This document shows, one piece after another, positions 16,393 to 36,647 of a DNA stretch of 64,000 nt. Made by a program: the position numbers and the translations under genes. The DNA is from Candidatus Nanohaloarchaea archaeon (GTDB lineage: Archaea; Nanohalarchaeota; Nanosalinia; Nanosalinales; Nanosalinaceae), in NCBI GenBank assembly GCA_042218075.1, contig JBDGRK010000005.1:36716-100715 (forward strand), given 5' to 3'. Under the pieces are notes generated by a model. The model did no database searches. It saw nothing but the letters and a program-made list of their open reading frames with translations, and was not told the origin of the DNA. Position 1 is the first letter of the stretch, and each line of letters starts with the position of its first letter.

Positions 16393-17021
16393 ATCAAGTA
16401 GAGCAGAGAAATGTAGACGACCTTGCGAAAAAACTCAGGAATAAAGCGGCCCTCTACTGCGATCTTTTCAAGATAGCCTACGGTCTTGAAGAAGATCCTG
16501 AGTTGATAAATGCCTATGTTGAGAAAGGCTGGGATTACGAGGTTTTGAAGCCAAGAATCGAGAATCTACTGGAAGAAACTGAAGATATTCTACCGGAGAC
16601 GAGAAATAATTATAGTAACAGAGAAGAGGAGCTTTACAGATTTTTCAGAAGGAAGGGAAAACCTAGATTTTCTAAAGAGTGTAAAAACTGGAGAAAACAT
16701 CATTCCGAAGCAGAGTTAGTGGATAACCAGAGAGATTCGGATACTCTTGATTACGGGCCTTTAATCAGGGCCCGGGCAACAGTAATCACCTTCGCTATGG
16801 AAGCTGCAAAATGGGATGAAGATCACTATGAATGGATACCTGATATAGAAGAGGATGATGACACTGAAATTATTGAGGAAACCGTTGACACGATTGATGG
16901 AGAAGTAGAACCTGCAACAGTTGCATCGCATCGATCAGAATCCCTCCCGCAAGAAAGTTCTGCAGCTTACATATTTCCGGGAATTGACCAGAACATAATT
17001 CTGGAACCGGAAAAGGATTAG
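16389..17021 (+). CDS. Hypothetical protein
   Basis: 210 aa acidic ORF with ATGA overlap to the ybaK-family gene. Confidence 0.65.
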   Translation: MNQVEQRNVDDLAKKLRNKAALYCDLFKIAYGLEEDPELINAYVEKGWDYEVLKPRIENLLEETEDILPETRNNYSNREEELYRFFRRKGKPRFSKECKNWRKHHSEAELVDNQRDSDTLDYGPLIRARATVITFAMEAAKWDEDHYEWIPDIEEDDDTEIIEETVDTIDGEVEPATVASHRSESLPQESSAAYIFPGIDQNIILEPEKD

Positions 17022-17060
17022 AGATTTAAGTTTAAGTTATCCAAGTTTAAATGATCACCA

Positions 17061-17181
17061 ATGAAAGGTGGACGTTTTTACACCGGAGCATTTTGAAAAT
17101 GACTTAAAACCTTCTAGCTTTAGCTCCAGCTTATTAAGTTCCCGCCCCGAATCTCTCTGCATGGTGGTTCTGAATGGATAG
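17061..17181 (+). promoter_or_regulatory. Putative Tyr-sensing frameshift leader of tyrS
   Basis: uORF 17061-17096 ATG AAA GGT GGA CGT TTT TAC ACC GGA GCA TTT TGA; +1 frame open to TAG 17179-17181, overlapping the tyrS ATG by 8 nt. Confidence 0.75.
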
Positions 17182-18196
17182 AGAGAACAGGAAAGAGTTT
17201 GTCCTCAGGAATACTGCAGAGTTTGTGAAGGAGGAGGAACTGGATGAGGTGCTGGATAAAGATGAACCCCGCGCCTACGTTGGATACGAGACTTCTGGGC
17301 CCGCCCACCTGGGACACTGGATCTCGGTGAGAAAGATGCTGGACCTTCAGAAGGCTGGCTTTCAGCCTGTTATACTCTGGGCGGATCTCCACACATACCT
17401 GAACAAGAAAGGGGAGGAGGAATGGATCGAGGATATGATGGAGTACTGGCAGGCCACCTTCGAGGCACTGGGACTTGAGGCAGAATACACTAAAGGAAGG
17501 AGTTTCGAGGAAAAAACAGAGTATTTCCACGACGTACTGGAGATGGCGAAAGAGACCACGATTAACAGGGGGACTCGATCAATGTCGGAAGTTGCAAGAG
17601 ACGATGAAAACCCTTACATCTCCCAGATAATTTACCCTCTGATGCAGTGCCTGGACATAGAATATCTCGACCTTGACCTGGCGGTCGCGGGCATCGACCA
17701 GAGAAAGATTCACATGCTGGCGAGAGAGAAACTCCCAAAGCTCGGCTACAGGAAGCCTACCTGCCTCCACTGGCCGATGCTGGCTTCACTTTCAGGAACG
17801 GGAGACAAGATGTCGTCCAGCAAGAAAGATACAATGTTCCCTCTGCACGCCGACCCCGATCACATTAGAGAAATTATAGAGGAAGGCTACTGTCCGCAGG
17901 GAGAGGTTGAGGACAATCCTATCATCGAGATAGCAAAGTACTTCATCTTCGGAGCTGATCGAGAGCTAAAGATAGAGAGAAAGGAGGAGTACGGTGGAGA
18001 CATTCACTACGAGGATTTCGAGGCTATGGCTGAAGACTTCGAATCCGGAGATCTACACCCTCTAGACCTGAAGGAAGCTGTAGCTGACGAAGTGGTGGAA
18101 AGGTTTGAGCCGGTGAGGCAGCGATTCAGAGAAGAGCCTGAGCTGCTTGATCCACTGGAAGAGATAGGTCACGAGAGACCCGGATATCTCCAGTGA
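17174..18196 (+). CDS. tyrS: Tyrosine--tRNA ligase (archaeal type)
   Basis: YVGYETSGPAHLGH (HIGH), IYPLMQCLD, GIDQRKIHMLARE, KMSSS. Confidence 0.97.
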   Translation: MDRENRKEFVLRNTAEFVKEEELDEVLDKDEPRAYVGYETSGPAHLGHWISVRKMLDLQKAGFQPVILWADLHTYLNKKGEEEWIEDMMEYWQATFEALGLEAEYTKGRSFEEKTEYFHDVLEMAKETTINRGTRSMSEVARDDENPYISQIIYPLMQCLDIEYLDLDLAVAGIDQRKIHMLAREKLPKLGYRKPTCLHWPMLASLSGTGDKMSSSKKDTMFPLHADPDHIREIIEEGYCPQGEVEDNPIIEIAKYFIFGADRELKIERKEEYGGDIHYEDFEAMAEDFESGDLHPLDLKEAVADEVVERFEPVRQRFREEPELLDPLEEIGHERPGYLQ

Positions 18197-18243
18197 TCAC
18201 CCATTATTTTTATTTCTTCCAGAGAAAGCTAGAACGATCCGCA

Positions 18244-18337
18244 ATGAAGGGTGGACGCTTTTCCGGTCGGAAGGTTTTCGAATGAACCAAAACCTGTTCT
18301 AGTTAAAGCTTTCTTCCAAAGTGGTTGGTATGCTTGA
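18244..18337 (+). promoter_or_regulatory. Putative Ser-sensing frameshift leader of serS
   Basis: uORF 18244-18285 ATG AAG GGT GGA CGC TTT TCC ... TGA; +1 frame open to TGA 18335-18337, overlapping the serS ATG by 8 nt. Confidence 0.75.
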
Positions 18338-19595
18338 TATAGATCTTTTCAGGCAGAATCCCGAGGAGATCAGAGAATCACAGAGAAAAAGAGGTGAAGA
18401 TCCTGAAAAAGTAGATGAAGTTGTCGAAGTGGATAGAGAATGGAGAGAGAAGCTCCAGGAGCTGGAATCTCTGCAGCAGGAGAGAAATACTGTTGGAGAT
18501 GAAATTGCTGAAGCAAAACAGAAAGGGAAAGACGCCTCTGAAAAGATCGAAAGGATGCAGCAGCTGAAACAAAAGATAGATGAACTGGAGGATGAGGTAA
18601 AGCAGCTTAAGGAAAGACGTGACAACTTGAGATACCAGATTGGAAACTTGCTGCATGAATCAGTTCCCGAAGGAGAAGGAGAGGAAGACAATCCTGAAGT
18701 CAGGAGCTGGGAGCCTGAAGGAGGAAGAAAGGAGGATTCGAAGCTGGCAGCCCACATTATGGAAGAGCAGAATTTGCTTTCCTCGGAGAAAGCGACTGAG
18801 GTGGGCGGAGAAAGAGCCTATTACCTATCACCAAAACTGATACAGCTTAGTCAGGCACTGATAAACTTCTCTATAGATTTCCTAGAGGAAAGAGGTTTCG
18901 GTGTATACCAGACTCCCTACATGCTGGAGGAAGAATCGATCTCAGCCGCAGTCGATCTTGAAACATTCGAAGAACAGCTTTACCAGGTGAATGAAAACGA
19001 TCGATACCTGATAGGGACCGCGGAGCACGCACTCGCCGCAAAGTACCAGAACGAAGTGATAGAAGAAGAACTTCCCCTCAAACTCGGAGGTTTCTCAACC
19101 AACTTCAGGAGGGAAGCCGGGAAGCACGGCCAGCAGACAAGAGGTCTATGGCGAGTACACCAGTTCGAGAAGGTGGAGCAGTTCGTGTTCTGCAAGCCAG
19201 AAAACCACCTTGATATTCTTGAAGAGACTCTATCCAATGCCGAGGATATAATGAAGCAGCTTGGTCTGCCGTACAGGGTGGTTGATATTTGTGACGGCGA
19301 TATTTCCAACAAGACTTTCAAACAGTACGATATAGAGGTCTGGAGGCCTCCACTTGGAGAGTACGGAGAAGTAGGAAGCTACGGTTCGTGCACAGGCTAC
19401 CAGTCCAGGGAATTTAACACACAGTTCAGAGAGGGAGGCAACAGAAAGACACCCTACACTGTATATGCCACTGGATTAGTACCTCAGAGGATTATTACAG
19501 CTATATTCGAGAACAATCAGGAAGAGGAAGGCATAAAGATTCCAGAACCTCTAAGAGATTACATGGGAGGCAAGGAGTACATCAGGCTGGAATAA
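18330..19595 (+). CDS. serS: Serine--tRNA ligase
   Basis: MLDIDLFR N-terminal coiled coil, LIGTAE, FRREAG...RGLWRVHQFEKVEQF. Confidence 0.97.
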   Translation: MLDIDLFRQNPEEIRESQRKRGEDPEKVDEVVEVDREWREKLQELESLQQERNTVGDEIAEAKQKGKDASEKIERMQQLKQKIDELEDEVKQLKERRDNLRYQIGNLLHESVPEGEGEEDNPEVRSWEPEGGRKEDSKLAAHIMEEQNLLSSEKATEVGGERAYYLSPKLIQLSQALINFSIDFLEERGFGVYQTPYMLEEESISAAVDLETFEEQLYQVNENDRYLIGTAEHALAAKYQNEVIEEELPLKLGGFSTNFRREAGKHGQQTRGLWRVHQFEKVEQFVFCKPENHLDILEETLSNAEDIMKQLGLPYRVVDICDGDISNKTFKQYDIEVWRPPLGEYGEVGSYGSCTGYQSREFNTQFREGGNRKTPYTVYATGLVPQRIITAIFENNQEEEGIKIPEPLRDYMGGKEYIRLE

Positions 19596-27196: not shown

Positions 27197-27279
27197 CAAG
27201 ATCTCCCCCAAGAGCTGTTTCTATTCTCGTACTGGTTTTTGACGTTTGCGTCGTGGTTGTGGTGTGTTGTGTTTGTCAT
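27196..27279 (-). CDS. Mini-ORF (27 aa) coupled to the downstream orphan gene
   Basis: SD AGGTGA; MTNTTHHNHDANVKNQYENRNSSWGRS*; TGATG overlap. Confidence 0.6.
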   Translation of the reverse strand: MTNTTHHNHDANVKNQYENRNSSWGRS

Positions 27280-27284
27280 GGTTG

Positions 27285-27555
27285 TCACCTACAGCAAGAA
27301 GCTGTTCCCGACCTGCCAGGCCAAGAAACAGCGAGAAAACTCTACACAATAAGCAGCAGCACAATCAGGATAATCGAAACTGCACTGAATTCAGATACTT
27401 TCGAAAACAAACCAGAATCCATATTTGAGAAACTAACCGAGCAGAACATGTCCACCCTGGATAAAGCATCCACCCTGCACAAAATATTCACCCGTGGGGG
27501 CCGTGGACAGTGCTTTATGGAACATAGTCGTTAAGTCTCCTCTATTCTTTATAAA
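27285..27555 (-). promoter_or_regulatory. Putative Val/Ile/Leu-sensing triple-site frameshift leader
   Basis: TTTATAAA 22 nt before ATG 27525; uORF 27433-27525 with GGT GAA TAT TTT GTG / GGT GGA TGC TTT ATC / GGT GGA CAT GTT CTG; +1 frame ends IILIVLLLIV* at 27342; hairpin follows. Confidence 0.75.
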
Positions 27556-31406: not shown

Positions 31407-33341
31407 TTAATCCTGTCTTGACTGCTTGGCCCTCTCAGTCTCCATCCTCTGTTCCTTTTCAGAGGTGAGTCTCTTGGCTATCAGGTAGTAGGCCTCTCTC
31501 AGCTTCTTCAGGTCCTCGATCTCGCAGTACTCGTCTTTCCTGTGCACCATCTCCTGGTTCAGACCTATCTCCACGTAGGGAGTACCCTTCTCAGCAAAGT
31601 ATCTGCCGTCGGAAGTTCCCCCTTCCGTAATGTGTTCAGGTTCTCGACCCAGGACTTTCTGGAGTTCTTCAGTAGCTATCTTCCTGAACCTCTGGTCCGT
31701 GAGCTGGTATGCTCCGCCGTGATCAACTTTCGACTCCACCACGACATCAACTTCCAGATCTTCAAGCTCTTCCTCAATCCTCTGCCTGATCTCAAGGGTC
31801 TTTTGCTCGGGCGTGTACCTGATATCCATACCTATGTGGACTTCAGCTGGCAGGCTATTGTAAGTATCATCGCTGGATATTAGTGTCGGAGCAAGCGTTG
31901 GATCAGGAAGCTTCTTGTTTTCCACCTCCAGTTCCATTTCATTTAGGCGTTCCAGAGCCTTCGGAAGCGCCTTCAGCACATTTTTCTCCGCGTCCTCGAC
32001 TCTGGATGCGTGGACTGTATCTCCCTGGAGGTAGACATCAAGCCAGAATGCTCCTCTTGTTCCTGTCTGGATATCTAGATCGGTTGGCTCACCGTTAATC
32101 ACGTAATCGAAGCCATCCCCATCCCTGTAGTAGCTCTCCACCAGTGCCTTAGTGCCGTTTTCACCTCCTATCTCTTCATCGCCAGATATCATCAACACGG
32201 CTCTACCGTCAAAGTTTGGATCTCTCCTGAGGTCGACGAATGCCTTCATCATGGCCGCCACCTCGGCCTTCATATCCGTTGCTCCACGGCCGTAAAGCTT
32301 TCCATCCAGAACTGTGGGATCAAACGGATCAGTTACCTCCCAACCCACTCCAGGTTCAACAACATCGAGGTGACCGTTGAAGCAGACGGAAGTGCACCCG
32401 TTTCCTATCTCGGCCGTGAGGCTCTTTACACCCTGGATGTCGTGTATATCTGATTTTATCCCGTTTTCCTGCAGGTAACGCTCCATAGTTCTGAAGATTT
32501 CGGGATCCTTCACCGGGGAGACTGTCTCCTGGCCTATCAGCTCTTTCGCAACATCCACAATATCTCTATCATCGGTTTCAAGCTCTTCCTCTCTGACTCT
32601 GCGCCCCTTGTAGCCTATCTTGTGGGAGTAGCCCTTGGTTGACATCACTATTGGATAGAAATCTTCTTCCGCCCTGAGTTCTTCTCCCTCTTTCCTGGCG
32701 AAGACCTCTCCCTCTTCAACTTTCTCGAAGTTCCTTGCTGTGAACTCGTAACCCGATCCCTTTTCCTCTCCGAATATGCTGAAAATATCCGGGTCGCTGA
32801 CCCTGTAGTCCGCGTCTATAACACCTTCAGCAGCGAGGAAGTTCACCATGATATCATATGCGTTCTCCGCGGCTTCCTCTGAACCCGGCTTGCCGCATTC
32901 CACTGAGATACCTCTCATGTAGTTCATCATGGTCTCCGGCATCCAGGAAAGATCCACCGCTGTATCCAGTCCGGAGTTCTTGACCAGATCTAGATCCCTC
33001 GGATCTATGAAGAAACCGAAAGGCGTGGGCTCTGACTCTGTGGAGTGGAAGTCAAGAACTTTAAGACCCTCTACTTCCTCAAGCAGTTCCGCAGCTAGCC
33101 TCTCCTCGTGTACATCGCTTTCAGGGTCTCCCGGGAAGCATCTGTTCAGGTCTTTCTCGATGTACCTTTCCCCCTCTTCCCTTGCCTCTTCATTCGCCAG
33201 AATAAACTTTACCGCTTTCTTCAGCTCGTGTTCCGACCGCTTCAGCTTCCTCATCGCCTTCAATCCGCAGTCCTCCACGCCGTGAACACATGCTATAAGC
33301 GCGTACTCCGGCTTACCCTCACCGAGAATTTCCACCTTCAT
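31407..33341 (-). CDS. Fusion of AstE/AspA-like deacylase and M20 (DapE/ArgE-like) metallopeptidase
   Basis: N-terminal VHGVEDCG/DLNRCFPG/DFHST; C-terminal FNGHLDVV, GRGATDMK, DEEIGG, GEPT, GGTSDGR. Confidence 0.88.
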   Translation of the reverse strand: MKVEILGEGKPEYALIACVHGVEDCGLKAMRKLKRSEHELKKAVKFILANEEAREEGERYIEKDLNRCFPGDPESDVHEERLAAELLEEVEGLKVLDFHSTESEPTPFGFFIDPRDLDLVKNSGLDTAVDLSWMPETMMNYMRGISVECGKPGSEEAAENAYDIMVNFLAAEGVIDADYRVSDPDIFSIFGEEKGSGYEFTARNFEKVEEGEVFARKEGEELRAEEDFYPIVMSTKGYSHKIGYKGRRVREEELETDDRDIVDVAKELIGQETVSPVKDPEIFRTMERYLQENGIKSDIHDIQGVKSLTAEIGNGCTSVCFNGHLDVVEPGVGWEVTDPFDPTVLDGKLYGRGATDMKAEVAAMMKAFVDLRRDPNFDGRAVLMISGDEEIGGENGTKALVESYYRDGDGFDYVINGEPTDLDIQTGTRGAFWLDVYLQGDTVHASRVEDAEKNVLKALPKALERLNEMELEVENKKLPDPTLAPTLISSDDTYNSLPAEVHIGMDIRYTPEQKTLEIRQRIEEELEDLEVDVVVESKVDHGGAYQLTDQRFRKIATEELQKVLGREPEHITEGGTSDGRYFAEKGTPYVEIGLNQEMVHRKDEYCEIEDLKKLREAYYLIAKRLTSEKEQRMETERAKQSRQD

Positions 33342-35176
33342 CAGACTCTCGCACCCTGATTCTCGCCGTATTCAGTTGCCGGCATAAGCCCAAGGACATC
33401 CTCCAGATGCGCCTCAAGATCTCCAGCGTATGATGGAGCCATCGCCCCTGCTGTATCCATAACATCTGAATCGTACACATCCCTGTAAATATCCATCCAT
33501 TTTTCCTCTTCGTCAAGTCCAGGGAGGGTCTCAGGATCTGAAGGATCTAAACCTTCTACCTCTTTCTCGAAAGCCTGCCTGATCTTTTCACCGTGAGGCA
33601 TAACTGCTGCCTTTGCAAGAGCAACCTGGTACTCGTCATCGTAGTTCTGTCTCGAGACTCTGTACTCGAATCCTCCTGTAGCTGGCTTGGGCCTTACATC
33701 GTGGTGGATGCCCGCCATATGGGCGATTGAGACGTTTCGCTTGTGGTATTCGTCTTTTCTCTCTTCGTCCATTCCCTTGAGGTCAACCTTTCCTCTGACT
33801 CTCTCAAGTTCCGGTTCCTGATCTGAACCGGAATTAACCACCTTTGTGAATTCAATATCGCCGTCTTCAATATATTCCGCCGGTGTCTTGGCATCATCTG
33901 GACTGAGAGCGAGGAGTGTTACATCTTCCAGCTCTAACTCCTCATCTCCGTAAAACTCGACATATTCCTCGTCAGGAGGCAGGACCCAGACCATGTGATG
34001 CTCTGTCATGTAGTGATCCATCATGTTCTCGAACTCTCCCATTTCTCTCTCCTCATCCAGTAGCTTTTCAATGAGAGTCCAGGGTGTTCCGACCCTGTCT
34101 TGCTTGTCTTCTCCTTCAATCTCTGAAATCACGTGCTGTGCGTAAGTGTCATGCTCCCAGTATACCTGGTTGACTGCGGTCCTGGAGGTTTCTCCCTCGT
34201 ATTCAACCTTTGTGTTCGAACTTACCGTTTCAAGACCTCTCTCGAACAGCATCCTGTAAACAATCTCGTCTGAGATTCTCTGGTCCAGATCAAGGTTGCC
34301 GTTCTCATCCGCAAAAAGTCCTGAAGTCAACTGTGTCGAGCCGCCGAACATGTTAAGAGCGACCTTCGGCCCGAATATCGTGGCCATGTAGTCGAAGTAG
34401 TACGGAACATCGGTGAAATGATCAAAGTACTGGTTCAGGAATGCAAGAGCCTCATCCCTCTCCCATTCCTCCAATTTACCTCTTTTAATTACATCTCTTC
34501 CATCTGTCTCATCCGGAACTTCTTCAGGATCTGTGAACTGCGGCGTCAGTCCTTCTTCAGCGTATTCCAGGGCAGGGAACTCTCTTTCAAGGTAATTCTT
34601 CGTGCCCTCCTTGAAGCTTTCAAGTATAGCCAGCAGAAGACCGAACTCTCCATCTTCAGTGACTCTCACTGCTCCGGAATCTATCTCCTGCTGGGCCCCA
34701 AGATCGAAGTCAATTTCGGGCGTGGAAACCGCTATATCCTGGTCCGAGTCCTCAGTTAAGTCAAGTTTTAGAGCCGCAGGTTTCTGCCCGCCATGACCTT
34801 TCTCAACTACTTTATCCAGTTCAAACTCAAATTCCTCTCCGTATTCATCGGTTCTCTCTCTTAACTCCGAGTCTATCTCGCTCCAGAGCTCCTCGTTCAG
34901 AATCTGCTGATAAACAGGTGAAAGAGGCATCACTCCCTCCTCATTTAAAATCGGATTCTCGCTCTCAATACCGATTCCGACTCCTTCCGAGGAAGAGGCA
35001 TCGACATTCGAATTTTCCTCATAGTTCTCTTCCCAGTCCTCAACAGCACTTTCTCTAAAATCATCGTAAGAAAGGGTTTCCTCTACCTGATCATCTTCTT
35101 CAAGCATCTCTTCCACTGTTTCATTCTCCGAATCTCGGCTTTGAGATTCCGAAACATTTGCTTGTGAAACTGACAT
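33341..35176 (-). CDS. Divergent glutamate-cysteine ligase (GCS2/YbdK-like) carboxylate-amine ligase
   Basis: GIGIESE, GSTQLT and HHDVRPKPATGGFEYRV match the order of GCS2 motifs; SD AAGGTGA before ATG 35176; TGATG overlap with the peptidase fusion. Confidence 0.6.
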   Translation of the reverse strand: MSVSQANVSESQSRDSENETVEEMLEEDDQVEETLSYDDFRESAVEDWEENYEENSNVDASSSEGVGIGIESENPILNEEGVMPLSPVYQQILNEELWSEIDSELRERTDEYGEEFEFELDKVVEKGHGGQKPAALKLDLTEDSDQDIAVSTPEIDFDLGAQQEIDSGAVRVTEDGEFGLLLAILESFKEGTKNYLEREFPALEYAEEGLTPQFTDPEEVPDETDGRDVIKRGKLEEWERDEALAFLNQYFDHFTDVPYYFDYMATIFGPKVALNMFGGSTQLTSGLFADENGNLDLDQRISDEIVYRMLFERGLETVSSNTKVEYEGETSRTAVNQVYWEHDTYAQHVISEIEGEDKQDRVGTPWTLIEKLLDEEREMGEFENMMDHYMTEHHMVWVLPPDEEYVEFYGDEELELEDVTLLALSPDDAKTPAEYIEDGDIEFTKVVNSGSDQEPELERVRGKVDLKGMDEERKDEYHKRNVSIAHMAGIHHDVRPKPATGGFEYRVSRQNYDDEYQVALAKAAVMPHGEKIRQAFEKEVEGLDPSDPETLPGLDEEEKWMDIYRDVYDSDVMDTAGAMAPSYAGDLEAHLEDVLGLMPATEYGENQGARV

Positions 35177-35181
35177 TGTAT

Positions 35182-35390
35182 CACCTTTCAATTAGGAAGT
35201 GCAGAAAGAGCGAATTCTTTTCATGGAGGCCCGCCCTTTCAACACTCCGGGTCGATGGGCCCCCTTCAAACGACTAAAATAATCAGCAGGATAGCGATAC
35301 CGCTGACCAGATTCACTGATCCCGGTTCAAAGTTTTCGGCCAGCGTTTCTAACATATTTGATGCATCCACAGCAAACATTTAAATAAGGT
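35182..35390 (-). promoter_or_regulatory. Branched-chain-amino-acid leader peptide (no frameshift site) with downstream hairpins
   Basis: TTTAAA about 23 nt before ATG 35355; uORF 35266-35355 MLETLAENFEPGSVNLVSGIAILLIILVV*; GC-rich stem GGGGCCC/GGGCCTC; TCGCTCTTTC can pair with SD GAAAGGTGA. Confidence 0.65.
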
Positions 35391-35424: not shown

Positions 35425-36471
35425 CTATCCGGACCCTGTCTCCTCAAGATACTCCTTTCCCTCAGTGCAGTTTTCTCCAAATTTTTCCAGGTCAGTGTTT
35501 GCGCCACAGAGAGGCACCGCGACCTTTCTTCCCTCCAGATTCATGCCTAAATCTCTGCTGAAAAGCACAGCTGACGCAGCAACTGCTCCCGCAGGTTCAG
35601 TAACGACCTTCTGTCTCTCCGCCAGCATAGCTACAGTCGCCTTCACCTGTTCATCGGAAACATAGACCACTTCGTCGACAAGTTCCCTCATGTGCCCGGC
35701 GGGAAGATCTCCTACCCTTCTCGTAGCTATACCTTTCGCAACTGTGTCGACTGAATCTCTCTCGTACACCTTCTCCCGGTTGATAGTCTGCTTCGCGGAA
35801 CCGCACCCCTCTGTCTGTACACCGACAACTCTTGAATCAGGATTCAGGTGCTTTACTGCCGTAGCGACTCCACTTATTAGACCGCCGCCGCCGATGGCCA
35901 CAAAAACAGTGTTGAGTTCCGGGAACTGTTCCACCATCTCTTTTCCCAGTGTTCCCTGCCCTGCTATAACACCCGGATCATTGTATGGATGGACGAAGGT
36001 TAATCCCTGCTCCTTTTCCAGCTTTCTCGCATATTTCTTCGACTCCTCGAACTCCTCTCCATGGAGAACCACATCAGCACCGTAGCCGGAAGTAGCCTCA
36101 ACCTTCGCATCCGGGGTGTTCTCCGGCATCACTATCGTGGCTTCAACACCAAGCTCTCTGGCGGCGAGAGCAACTCCCTGCGCGTGGTTTCCTGAAGAAG
36201 CTGCGATCACTCCCCTCTCCTTATCTTCCCCGGAGAGCCGGGAAATCTTGTTGTAAGCTCCTCTAAGCTTGAAGGCCCCGGTCCTCTGGAAGTTTTCCAT
36301 CTTGAAACCTACTTTATCAGCTCCGGATTTCTCGGCGAAGGTTCTGGAGAAATCCATCGGAGTTTTCTTCGCGATTCCCTCAAGCCTTTCAGCTGCTCCT
36401 TTTACAGAGCTGTAGCTCACCAGTTCTTCGGATTTTGAAGTTTTCAGCGTTGCGTGGTCGTGTTTTGTCAT
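35425..36471 (-). CDS. ilvA: Threonine ammonia-lyase (short form, no regulatory domain)
   Basis: KMENFQRTGAFKLRGA, ASSGNHAQG, IGGGGL, EPAGA; SD GAGGTG before ATG 36471. Confidence 0.93.
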   Translation of the reverse strand: MTKHDHATLKTSKSEELVSYSSVKGAAERLEGIAKKTPMDFSRTFAEKSGADKVGFKMENFQRTGAFKLRGAYNKISRLSGEDKERGVIAASSGNHAQGVALAARELGVEATIVMPENTPDAKVEATSGYGADVVLHGEEFEESKKYARKLEKEQGLTFVHPYNDPGVIAGQGTLGKEMVEQFPELNTVFVAIGGGGLISGVATAVKHLNPDSRVVGVQTEGCGSAKQTINREKVYERDSVDTVAKGIATRRVGDLPAGHMRELVDEVVYVSDEQVKATVAMLAERQKVVTEPAGAVAASAVLFSRDLGMNLEGRKVAVPLCGANTDLEKFGENCTEGKEYLEETGSG

Positions 36472-36474
36472 TTT

Positions 36475-36647
36475 GCGAAGCACCTCTTGGAGAATAATCT
36501 AAGAGAAAGCTCGATTTCTACCCAATAATACCGATAATCGAAATGATGGAAATAGATCCAGAAACTTCAGAAAAATCAGATAGAGTTGGGACTCCCGAAA
36601 CTTTACTCAGATTCAGTAGACCGAAGGATAAAGCGTCCACCCTTCAT
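36475..36647 (-). promoter_or_regulatory. Putative Ile-sensing frameshift leader of ilvA
   Basis: uORF 36603-36647 ATG AAG GGT GGA CGC TTT ATC ... TAA; +1 frame ends ISIISIIGIIG* at 36518; CTCTT/AAGAG hairpin over the SD. Confidence 0.8.

Follow-up and report, generated by a model that had tools for sequence, protein, structure and literature searches.

A codon-programmed leader cassette before serS and other amino acid genes of Nanohaloarchaeota points to a putative +1 frameshifting sensor of tRNA charging

The serine--tRNA ligase gene (serS) in a 64,000-nucleotide stretch of a Candidatus Nanohaloarchaea archaeon genome (contig JBDGRK010000005.1 of assembly GCA_042218075.1; hereafter the window, numbered from its first letter) is preceded by a leader open reading frame (ORF) in which an 18-nt cassette is directly followed by a single Ser codon. 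The same cassette occurs before other aminoacyl-tRNA synthetase (aaRS) and amino acid-related genes of this genome and its relatives, followed by a codon cognate to the gene downstream, and the reading frame shifted by one nucleotide (+1) stays open beyond the frame in which that codon is read (frame 0). On the best reading of these sequences, this archaeal lineage would use a modular translational sensor, the serS leader being one of its copies. We consider it probable that this sensor works through a +1 frameshift at a hungry cognate codon, resembling that of the bacterial prfB gene and coupled to translation of the synthetase.

A Ser codon follows a repeated cassette upstream of serS

A first-pass annotation of the window, made from the letters alone, had proposed a cassette with a Ser codon in front of serS, and this was borne out. 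The 18 nt at positions 18244-18261 of the forward strand (ATGAAGGGTGGACGCTTT) are followed by TCC at 18262-18264, which places the cassette AAGGGTGGACGCTTT and the Ser codon within an ORF that begins MKGGRF-S (coordinates of all features are collected in Table 1). Codons 2 to 6 of this ORF read AAG GGT GGA CGC TTT and codon 7 is TCC; its start lies 48 nt past the tyrS stop codon and 86 nt ahead of the serS ATG (18330), and its stop codon is reached 21 nt downstream of the sensor codon. The DNA contigs of an independent sequencing run match the region 17772-18600 with 0 differences.

The 18 nt ahead of the sensor codon had been noted to be the same as in the leader of a gene named ilvA, and an exact copy does indeed occur at 36630-36647 on the minus strand, where it is followed by ATC. 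Two further copies were found in the window, one with 2 mismatches at 17061, followed by TAC, and one with 3 mismatches at 27463-27480 (-), again followed by ATC. These 4 matches to the 18-mer with up to 3 mismatches compare to 0.02 expected in the window, and none of 100 shuffles reached 4.

The +1 frame also closes over the serS ATG as had been claimed, with its TGA at 18335-18337 falling inside the 8-mer ATGCTTGA. The idea that tyrS and serS share an identical overlap survived only in part, as the length is 8 nt in both cases and the sequence differs (ATGGATAG in tyrS). Nor is a shared overlap the telling feature it was taken for: the offset between the +1 stop and the start codon varies over the family (-5 being the usual one for serS), and what is conserved is a +1 frame that stays open up to the start codon. 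The 8-mer ATGCTTGA was rejected as a meaningful motif in its own right (2 matches versus 2.57 expected), its presence following from the M-L-D N-terminus of SerRS. At 9 of the 11 cassette-less serS loci with full upstream sequence, an out-of-frame stop codon was likewise found at most 12 nt into serS, so that the overlap alone proves nothing, and a correlation of the cassette with such a stop was dismissed as non-discriminating. The earlier reading of a repeated cassette, a cognate codon and a +1 frame leading to the synthetase start is supported, and the frameshift it implied is a prediction.

The sensor codon is cognate to the downstream gene

The window belongs to an assembly of 1.10 Mb in 40 contigs. 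In the rest of this genome, the cassette was found before thrS (with ACC as sensor), valS (GTT), pheS-pheT (TTC) and proS (CCA, with GTT replacing the TTT ahead of it), as two tandem cassettes with a TGG sensor before an operon ending in trpS, and as a diverged copy AAAGGTGAATATTTT-GGA before glyS. A relaxed scan of the whole genome for GGTG[AG]-N4-[TG]TT required that an ATG precede it in frame, that frame 0 stop early, that the +1 frame be longer and that its stop fall at the start of a long ORF. It retrieved 8 loci, every one an aaRS gene or operon (for Gly, Trp, Phe, Thr, Val, Tyr, Ser and Pro), and the sensor was cognate in 8/8; the same scan applied to the +2 frame retrieved 3 loci. No cassette was found before the IleRS, LeuRS, MetRS, AspRS, GluRS, CysRS and HisRS genes of this genome (ArgRS, LysRS and AlaRS lay outside this search).

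The strict pattern AAGGGTGGACGYTTT, with at most 1 mismatch, was present in 28 of 41 related genomes, giving 111 matches versus 7 for the reversed control, and in 51 of 70 genomes of the phylum, all of them from one order. Scanning the genomes of 185,579 species for an exact ATGAARGGTGGACGYTTT yielded 69 stretches. Judged by their record titles, 32 of these come from Nanohaloarchaea, Nanohalobium, Nanosalina or Nanohalarchaeota, 8 from an 'uncultured archaeon' and 1 from an Asbonarchaeaceae archaeon; the remaining 28 are single scattered matches titled as bacteria, within the estimate of about 70 chance matches in 596 Gb. Across the phylum, the cassette was present at 18 of 29 serS loci, with genomes of the same genus lacking it before serS, and the element is gained and lost quickly.

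The statistics that follow refer to 119 distinct instances from the window genome and 27 relatives, collected with at most 2 mismatches to the conserved 15-mer and with duplicates removed by sequence, each cassette of a double leader being counted separately. In 71 of them the first downstream long ORF could be assigned by its match to a verified reference of known amino acid specificity, and the sensor codon was cognate in 71/71, covering 11 amino acids. The aaRS genes among these encode SerRS (16), ThrRS (11), ValRS (11), GlyRS (9), TyrRS (5), TrpRS (4), CysRS (2), PheRS (2), ProRS (1) and HisRS (1), and the biosynthetic ones TrpB (4, as trpB-trpA), a TrpD-like protein (1), IlvA-like proteins (3) and a ProC-ProB fusion (1). 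Non-cognate codons scattered at random before other aaRS genes, which the first-pass annotation had named as evidence against its reading, were encountered neither at the 8 loci of this genome nor among the assignable cases of its relatives. Sensors for 12 amino acids (T, S, C, L, V, H, I, W, F, Y, G and P) and at least 23 codons were seen among the 119 instances, and none for D, E, K, R, N, Q, A or M.

The +1 frame leads to the start of the downstream gene

Upstream of the sensor codon, an in-frame ATG was reached before any stop codon in 114 of 119 instances, versus 17 and 12 in the other two frames, and frame 0 was closed by a stop codon 27-99 nt after the cassette start in 119/119. The +1 frame outlasted frame 0 in every one of the 119, with median open lengths of 42, 127 and 65 nt in frames 0, +1 and +2, respectively. 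Moreover, the +1 stop lay within -14 to +16 nt of the start of a long ORF in 72/119, compared to 11/119 for the +2 frame and 0/119 for frame 0. Use of a -1/+2 frame was rejected on the same +2 values (median of 65 nt, 11/119 'coupled'), which carry no signal. Transcriptional slippage was set aside as well, the T runs measuring just 3-6 nt. By class, the +1 stop was coupled to the start in 16/16 SerRS, 11/11 ThrRS, 10/11 ValRS, 9/9 GlyRS and 5/5 TyrRS leaders, and the commonest offsets within the above range were -1 (ATGA, 26 cases) and -5 (15 cases, mostly serS). In 14 further instances the +1 frame extended over at least 300 nt, most running into a protein-coding frame; in the protein encoded first in the Trp operon, conserved sequence sets in immediately past the cassette, and no ATG occurs in the first 75-106 codons.

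In the 55 aaRS leaders with a coupled +1 ORF, these ORFs contain 66 cognate residues in 1948 codons, whereas label shuffles gave 147 on average and no fewer than 100, so that 0 of 10000 were as low. S, T, V, G and Y all show this depletion, which the +2 frame of these leaders does not, and it would be expected if the +1 frame is translated just when the amino acid is short. In the leaders of non-aaRS genes (Ile, Leu, Val and Trp sensors), the +1 ORFs end in runs of these same amino acids, such as ...SISIISIIGIIG, IILLIILIL, LLLLLL or VLVL ahead of the stop codon, and their last 12 codons (600 in total) hold 135 cognate residues versus 35.8 expected. Double cassettes, in which an Ile or a Val sensor precedes a Leu sensor, have a common frame-0 ORF and a common +1 ORF, and we read these and the run-bearing leaders as candidates for a two-stage sensor.

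Nucleotides rather than residues are conserved in the cassette

GGTG and the TT in the last two cassette positions were invariant in 119/119. The codon ahead of the sensor, which would occupy the P site, was TTT in 100 instances, GTT in 19 and never TTC; all 100 cassettes with Phe at this position hence use TTT, which makes up 31% of the Phe codons genome-wide (TTC 69%). The encoded residues vary (K/Q/E/R; R/C/H/G/D/Y; F/V), GGA-to-GAA variants lose Gly for Glu and gain a canonical GGUGA, and in 40/119 the peptide up to the sensor is no longer than the six residues MKGGRF. We read the constraint as acting on the RNA rather than on the peptide.

The GGGTGG of the cassette is complementary, with two G.U pairs, to the 16S rRNA 3′ end GGAUCACCUCCA of 4 relatives, which stood in for the window's own assembly, where a search for a 16S gene gave none. 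At positions -16 to -6 of 436 long ORFs in this genome, GGTG occurred 49 times, versus 8 in a control window, and is this genome's Shine-Dalgarno (SD) core. As for the codon ahead of the sensor, the P-site tRNA could re-pair fully after a +1 shift in 49/119 instances (UUU_U) and at 2 of 3 positions in those with UUU_A or UUU_G (49/119) or GUU (19/119). Sensors starting with C are paired with GTT in 14/16 and all other sensors with TTT in 98/103, which fits an avoidance of UUU_C, where tRNA-Phe would re-pair better in the +1 frame. As a side observation, the Wyosine_form domain (Taw1/TYW1) was detected in 0 of 5 genomes (this one and 4 complete relatives) and in 3 archaeal controls; more speculatively, UUU may be more slippery if tRNA-Phe lacks wyosine.

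Putative promoters precede the leader ATG, and no conserved RNA structure was detected in the leaders

A TATA-like hexamer starting 22-36 nt before the frame-0 ATG was found in 70/114 leaders, versus 8/114 in a control window, and this placement relative to the ATG holds at any distance between ATG and cassette. Because of this set distance, the leader transcripts are probably leaderless mRNAs. The proximal element CCAAAACC...TAGTTAAAG between the cassette and serS also occurs before serS of same-genus genomes without a cassette, suggesting that the cassette would add an inducible route onto a basal one. The second cassettes of Trp operons (L055, L089, L092, L096 and the window genome's own, G000 C10) share a conserved ACGTGAT(TTGA) between the TATA-like box and the frame-0 ATG, a possible operator through which a transcription factor would add to the action of the cassette.

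Searching the 64 kb against Rfam returned 0 matches at gathering score, and at E values up to 10 the region 16950-18400 yielded no T-box, its sole match being SAM-SAH at a chance-level E of 4.5. RNAalifold, applied to 13 Ser and to 9 Thr leaders, detected no conserved structure, and single-sequence folding energies were no better than those of shuffles (z of -1.1 and +0.4). Neither approach produced terminator or antiterminator hairpins, and a GGGUGGA/UUUACCC hairpin is confined to leaders with an ACC-C or AUC-C sensor. In biosynthesis-type leaders, the +1 ORFs are followed by oligo-T runs.

A model of +1 frameshifting at a hungry cognate codon

Directly observed are the cassette with its conservation, the cognate rule, the statistics of the reading frames, the SD-like complementarity to 16S rRNA and the scarcity of cognate residues in the +1 ORFs, and these could be connected as follows. 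The transcript would begin at or very near the ATG at 18244, and frame 0 would be translated through AAG GGU GGA CGC UUU. With UUU in the P site, GGGUGG 4 nt upstream would pair with the 16S 3′ end at the shortest spacing used by the genome. As long as charged cognate tRNA is plentiful, TCC would be decoded and the ribosome would stop 21 nt further on, at the TGA at 18283-18285. If charged tRNA becomes scarce, the A site would remain empty, upon which the ribosome would slip by +1, translate the open +1 frame to its TGA, terminate over the serS ATG and then reinitiate. More SerRS would thus be made when Ser-tRNA is short, because +1 ribosomes would reinitiate at the serS ATG. Elsewhere, as at the head of the Trp operon, the gene itself would be the +1 frame, as in bacterial prfB.

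Somewhat less firmly, we lean towards the broader proposal that Nanohaloarchaeota possess a ribosome-based counterpart of the T-box regulon, built on a module of ~21 nt (SD-like element, spacer, UUU and codon) in which shortage would lead to a +1 shift. This module would have been re-targeted to at least 12 amino acids by codon exchange, and would act in two stages together with the codon runs of biosynthesis-type leaders. If so, it would be the first natural case of regulatory hungry-codon frameshifting and the first archaeal sensor of tRNA charging to be described.

Several points weigh against this model. The frameshift, its link to tRNA charging, reinitiation at the gene start and the direction in which expression would change are what we infer from sequence. 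The family counts come from kin genomes and therefore are inflated by non-independent events, and the 48/119 instances outside the cognate set have an unknown first downstream ORF or no long ORF within the stretch covered. The SD-like pairing involves just 6 bp, two of them G.U, and its spacing of 4-5 nt to UUU lies at the short edge of, yet inside, the normal SD-to-start range of the genome, which makes a prfB-like 'tension' less clear. GUU variants and UUU before A or G allow the P-site tRNA to re-pair at 2 of 3 positions only. The rule that GTT accompanies C-starting sensors stems mostly from Leu leaders (10/10, next to Pro 2/2 and His 2/4), so that common descent may explain part of it. 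The invariant GTG inside the cassette could independently start the +1 ORF. Finally, the cassette is dispensable, because same-genus genomes do without it before serS, and serS is probably expressible without the leader because of the likely proximal promoter between the two.

The GTG in particular gives rise to a different explanation, in which two independent overlapping upstream ORFs exist without any frameshift, the +1 ORF beginning at this GTG and a stalled frame-0 ribosome modulating access to it. In favour of this, the GTG (within GGTGG) is invariant in 119/119, an ORF listing indeed begins the +1 ORFs there (18251 for serS), and the fusion-type genes could be plain GTG-started genes. 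However, a ribosome stalled at the sensor, 11 nt downstream, would be expected to cover the GTG, so that starvation would lower expression, which is wrong for homeostasis; more enzyme at low charged tRNA, as the frameshift model would have it, is the opposite and physiologically sensible direction. No SD is present at a usable distance ahead of the GTG, the TATA-like box is positioned relative to the frame-0 ATG rather than the GTG, and this explanation would not account for why TT never varies, why Phe is always encoded by TTT, why GTT accompanies C-starting sensors or why cognate residues are depleted in the +1 ORFs. We therefore regard independent GTG starts as unlikely. Slightly more improbable still is a pure attenuator, in which a pause at the cognate codon, aided by the KGGRF peptide or the SD-like element, would alter RNA structure, termination or stability with the +1 geometry as a side effect. 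Leader-peptide logic does exist in the lineage, as exemplified by a cassette-less leader at 35266-35355 (-), and cognate-codon runs end the +1 ORFs of biosynthesis-type leaders. Such stalling nevertheless explains neither the +1 statistics (72/119 versus 11/119, and longer than frame 0 in 119/119) nor the depletion of cognate residues; furthermore, the peptide is unconserved and, with six residues at the sensor in 40/119, short for tunnel-mediated arrest, and conserved alternative hairpins were not detected.

Two other explanations appear very improbable, and equally so. In one of these, the leader would be a T-box-like RNA that binds uncharged tRNA with the variable triplet as specifier. Specifier-like cognate triplets do precede aaRS and amino acid genes, and GGGUGG/AGGGUGG presumably resembles the T-box core sequence. 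This is countered by the outcome of the Rfam searches (no match at gathering score in 64 kb and no T-box at E up to 10 in 16950-18400), by the lack of conserved structure in the Ser and Thr leaders and their shuffle-like folding z values, and by the triplet being in frame with an upstream ATG in 114/119; in addition, UGGA would presumably require a U73 discriminator in all tRNAs. In the other, the cassette would be a DNA-level element (a transcription-factor site or promoter part) or a chance repeat, in line with a sharply conserved 15-mer near promoters. Yet the distance to the TATA-like box varies with the N-terminal extension of frame 0 while the frame relative to the ATG is kept, and the triplet follows the amino acid of the downstream gene; a chance repeat is at odds with the 0.02 matches expected in the window and with the reversed-pattern control (7 versus 111 in 41 genomes).

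Relation to known regulatory systems

The closest parallel to the proposed frameshift is prfB, with which the leaders share a short frame-0 ORF, an internal SD-like stimulator lying a short way 5′ of the shift codon, a P-site codon rich in U, a presumably slow A-site codon that reports the activity supplied by the gene, and +1 as the productive frame; in fusion-type members, among them the leading gene of the Trp operon, the prfB architecture is copied fully. The distance from SD to shift site in prfB is 3 nt. In prfB the A-site codon is UGA, in contrast to a sense codon in the cassette (at least 23 codons for 12 amino acids), and most +1 frames of the cassette would serve as a mere conveyor, ending at the start codon of another gene. 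The cassette is furthermore archaeal, probably carried by a leaderless mRNA, has a 4-nt spacer and a frameshift that is predicted only, and serves aaRS and amino acid metabolism genes instead of release factor 2 (RF2), so that it would work alike without being a family member. In a 2016 recoding review (PMC5009743), RF2 is described with a short frame-0 ORF, an SD stimulator and a CUU_U shift site, which is UUU_U in a minority of species. The review also notes that the SD of prfB is retained where Gly is lost, which is the same argument for RNA over peptide.

With the T-box riboswitches of Gram-positive bacteria the cassette shares its regulatory logic and its kind of regulon, with one cis element per gene, a single cognate triplet, a position before aaRS, biosynthesis and salvage genes, and tandem copies (Trp leaders). 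It is no member of this family either, and differs in being archaeal, in having no tRNA-binding fold or Rfam match (T-box riboswitch, RF00230), and in a triplet that would be read by a translating ribosome. Leader-peptide attenuators are exemplified by trpL, ilvL, thrL and the pheM of the pheST operon of E. coli. As in these, a short translated leader with a cognate codon would sense charged tRNA, and the +1 ORFs of Ile, Leu and Val leaders end in runs. Unlike these, the serS leader has a single frame-0 sensor codon and no run, and terminator or antiterminator hairpins were not detected; where a run of regulatory codons exists, it would be reachable only after a change of frame, because it lies in the +1 frame. 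Ribosome arrest peptides differ in turn, since the residues of the cassette vary while GGTG and TT are fixed, and since the peptide is too short in 40/119.

Hungry-codon shifts, such as those at Ty1 CUU_AGG_C and the starvation frameshifts of E. coli, are similar in that a slowly decoded A-site codon promotes a +1 shift, although the shift proposed for these leaders would be dedicated to regulation and recur throughout a regulon. According to the recoding review, hungry codons promote +1 shifts, and of starvation-specific uses of such shifts it states there that 'no examples are known' (PMC5009743). Termination-reinitiation at overlapping stop and start codons has been documented in archaea (PMC6728339, PMC10666635). 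The leaders resemble those cases in their ATGA or TGATG overlaps or very short gaps (ATGA in 26 of the 72 coupled cases, the coupling being predicted), and differ in that the upstream partner is a non-conserved ORF that could be entered only out of frame. No description of the element was found in the literature, as covered by open-access papers and preprints.

We know of no archaeal T-box or leader-peptide attenuator, none having come up in open-access papers and preprints, and to our knowledge it is largely unknown how archaea sense tRNA charging or adjust their aaRS levels. If true, the model would explain how genome-reduced, host-dependent symbionts tune translation to amino acid supply, and would provide a compact, codon-programmable amino acid sensor of interest to synthetic biology. 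It would also change annotations in the phylum, as starts called at the cassette GTG (VDAF...) would be trans-frame fusions, and would turn the unknown proteins under Trp, Ile, Leu and Phe sensors into candidates for amino acid salvage or transport functions. Since the group has cultivated co-cultures and complete genomes, the idea is testable.

Other leaders in the window and observations on neighbouring genes

Table 1. Features of the serS leader and of the other cassette-bearing leaders in the window (promoter roles and the proposed functions of the codons are predictions).
Feature	Position	Strand	Basis or remarks
Leader ORF of serS, frame 0	18244-18285	+	MKGGRFSGRKVFE followed by stop, 13 codons, stop TGA 18283-18285
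GGGTGG, SD-like element within leader ORF	18249-18254	+	GGTG invariance, complementarity to 16S 3′ end
TTT, proposed P-site slippery codon, 4 nt past SD-like element	18259-18261	+	TT invariant in family
TCC, Ser sensor codon (proposed hungry A-site codon)	18262-18264	+	Ser sensor 16/16 before SerRS
+1-frame ORF	18251-18337	+	Open from within cassette to TGA 18335-18337; 8-nt overlap with serS start
serS (serine--tRNA ligase)	18330-19595	+	TIGR00414, E 2.3e-123, 412 bits versus cut-off of 301.65
A/T-rich TATA-like stretch, likely leader-transcript promoter	18203-18215	+	About 30-40 nt before ATG
Likely proximal serS promoter, CCAAAACC...TAGTTAAAG, within +1 ORF	18287-18308	+	Conserved in Ser and Thr leaders
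tyrS leader	17061-17181	+	Frame-0 ORF 17061-17096 (MKGGRFYTGAF followed by stop), sensor TAC 17079-17081
Leader of threonine ammonia-lyase-like gene	36518-36647	-	Frame-0 ORF 36603-36647 (MKGGRFILRSTESE followed by stop), sensor ATC 36627-36629
Dual-sensor leader	27342-27525	-	Frame-0 ORF 27433-27525 (...VQGGCF-I-QGGHV-L-LG followed by stop), sensors ATC 27460-27462 and CTG 27442-27444

The +1 ORF of the tyrS leader (17068-17181) stops at TAG 17179-17181, overlapping the tyrS ATG (17174) by 8 nt, and tyrS itself (17174-18196) matches NF006330 with an E value of 7.4e-121. On the minus strand, the exact cassette copy precedes a threonine ammonia-lyase-like gene (35425-36471, 352 aa) with TIGR01127 as its best match (E 3.8e-108, under the curated cut-off), and the corresponding +1 ORF (36518-36640) has the C-terminal end ...SISIISIIGIIG. 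The dual-sensor leader has a +1 ORF (27342-27473, -) that closes with ...SIILIVLLLIV, and the ORFs downstream of it (129 aa and 499 aa) were assigned no family in a profile search. ARAGORN, at default settings, detected 0 tRNA genes in the window and 9 in the assembly.

The cassette-less leader at 35266-35355 (-) encodes a classical leader peptide (MLETLAENFEPGSVNLVSGIAILLIILVV followed by stop), with a TATA-like box about 25 nt upstream. It precedes a 616-aa ORF (33341-35191, -), relatives of which sit elsewhere behind Leu (CTA) cassettes. This family of 576 to 616 aa (L087, L090 and the window ORF) and another of 376 aa (L023, L100, L101) have no Pfam or NCBIfam match; they lie behind Ile+Leu, Phe or Leu sensors and are candidates for amino acid-related functions.

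In biosynthesis-type leaders (27212-27341 (-) in the window; L022, L023, L045, L063, L071, L082, L100 and L103), the +1 ORF is followed by the oligo-T run and then by an SD, after which comes a very A/C-rich start ATGACAACACACAAC... (MT[TLK][HQ]...). In the window, this start opens a separate small ORF whose TGATG end overlaps the start of the 129-aa ORF. A CAAAACC motif occurs about 45-60 nt after the A/C-rich start, and also before the proximal TATA-like box of Ser and Thr leaders.

In the Trp-sensor operon of the window genome (G000 C10 46678-50669, L031), the first gene, which would be entered by way of the cassette, encodes a 244-aa protein without a known family. It is followed by genes for an M20 ArgE/DapE-type deacylase, an o-succinylbenzoate-synthase/N-acylamino-acid-racemase-like enolase and, as fourth gene, trpS, so that the operon looks like an amino acid salvage module co-regulated with the synthetase. 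The ProRS (G000 C40 11319-12548, L034) is short (410 aa) and bacterial-type (TIGR00409), and the TyrRS, TrpRS, ValRS and PheRS beta are archaeal-type.

Over the region 17000-18600, contigs of other organisms from the same metagenomes match just the ~21-nt cassette and then diverge (with joints at 17079), which shows that uncultured relatives carry many more copies.

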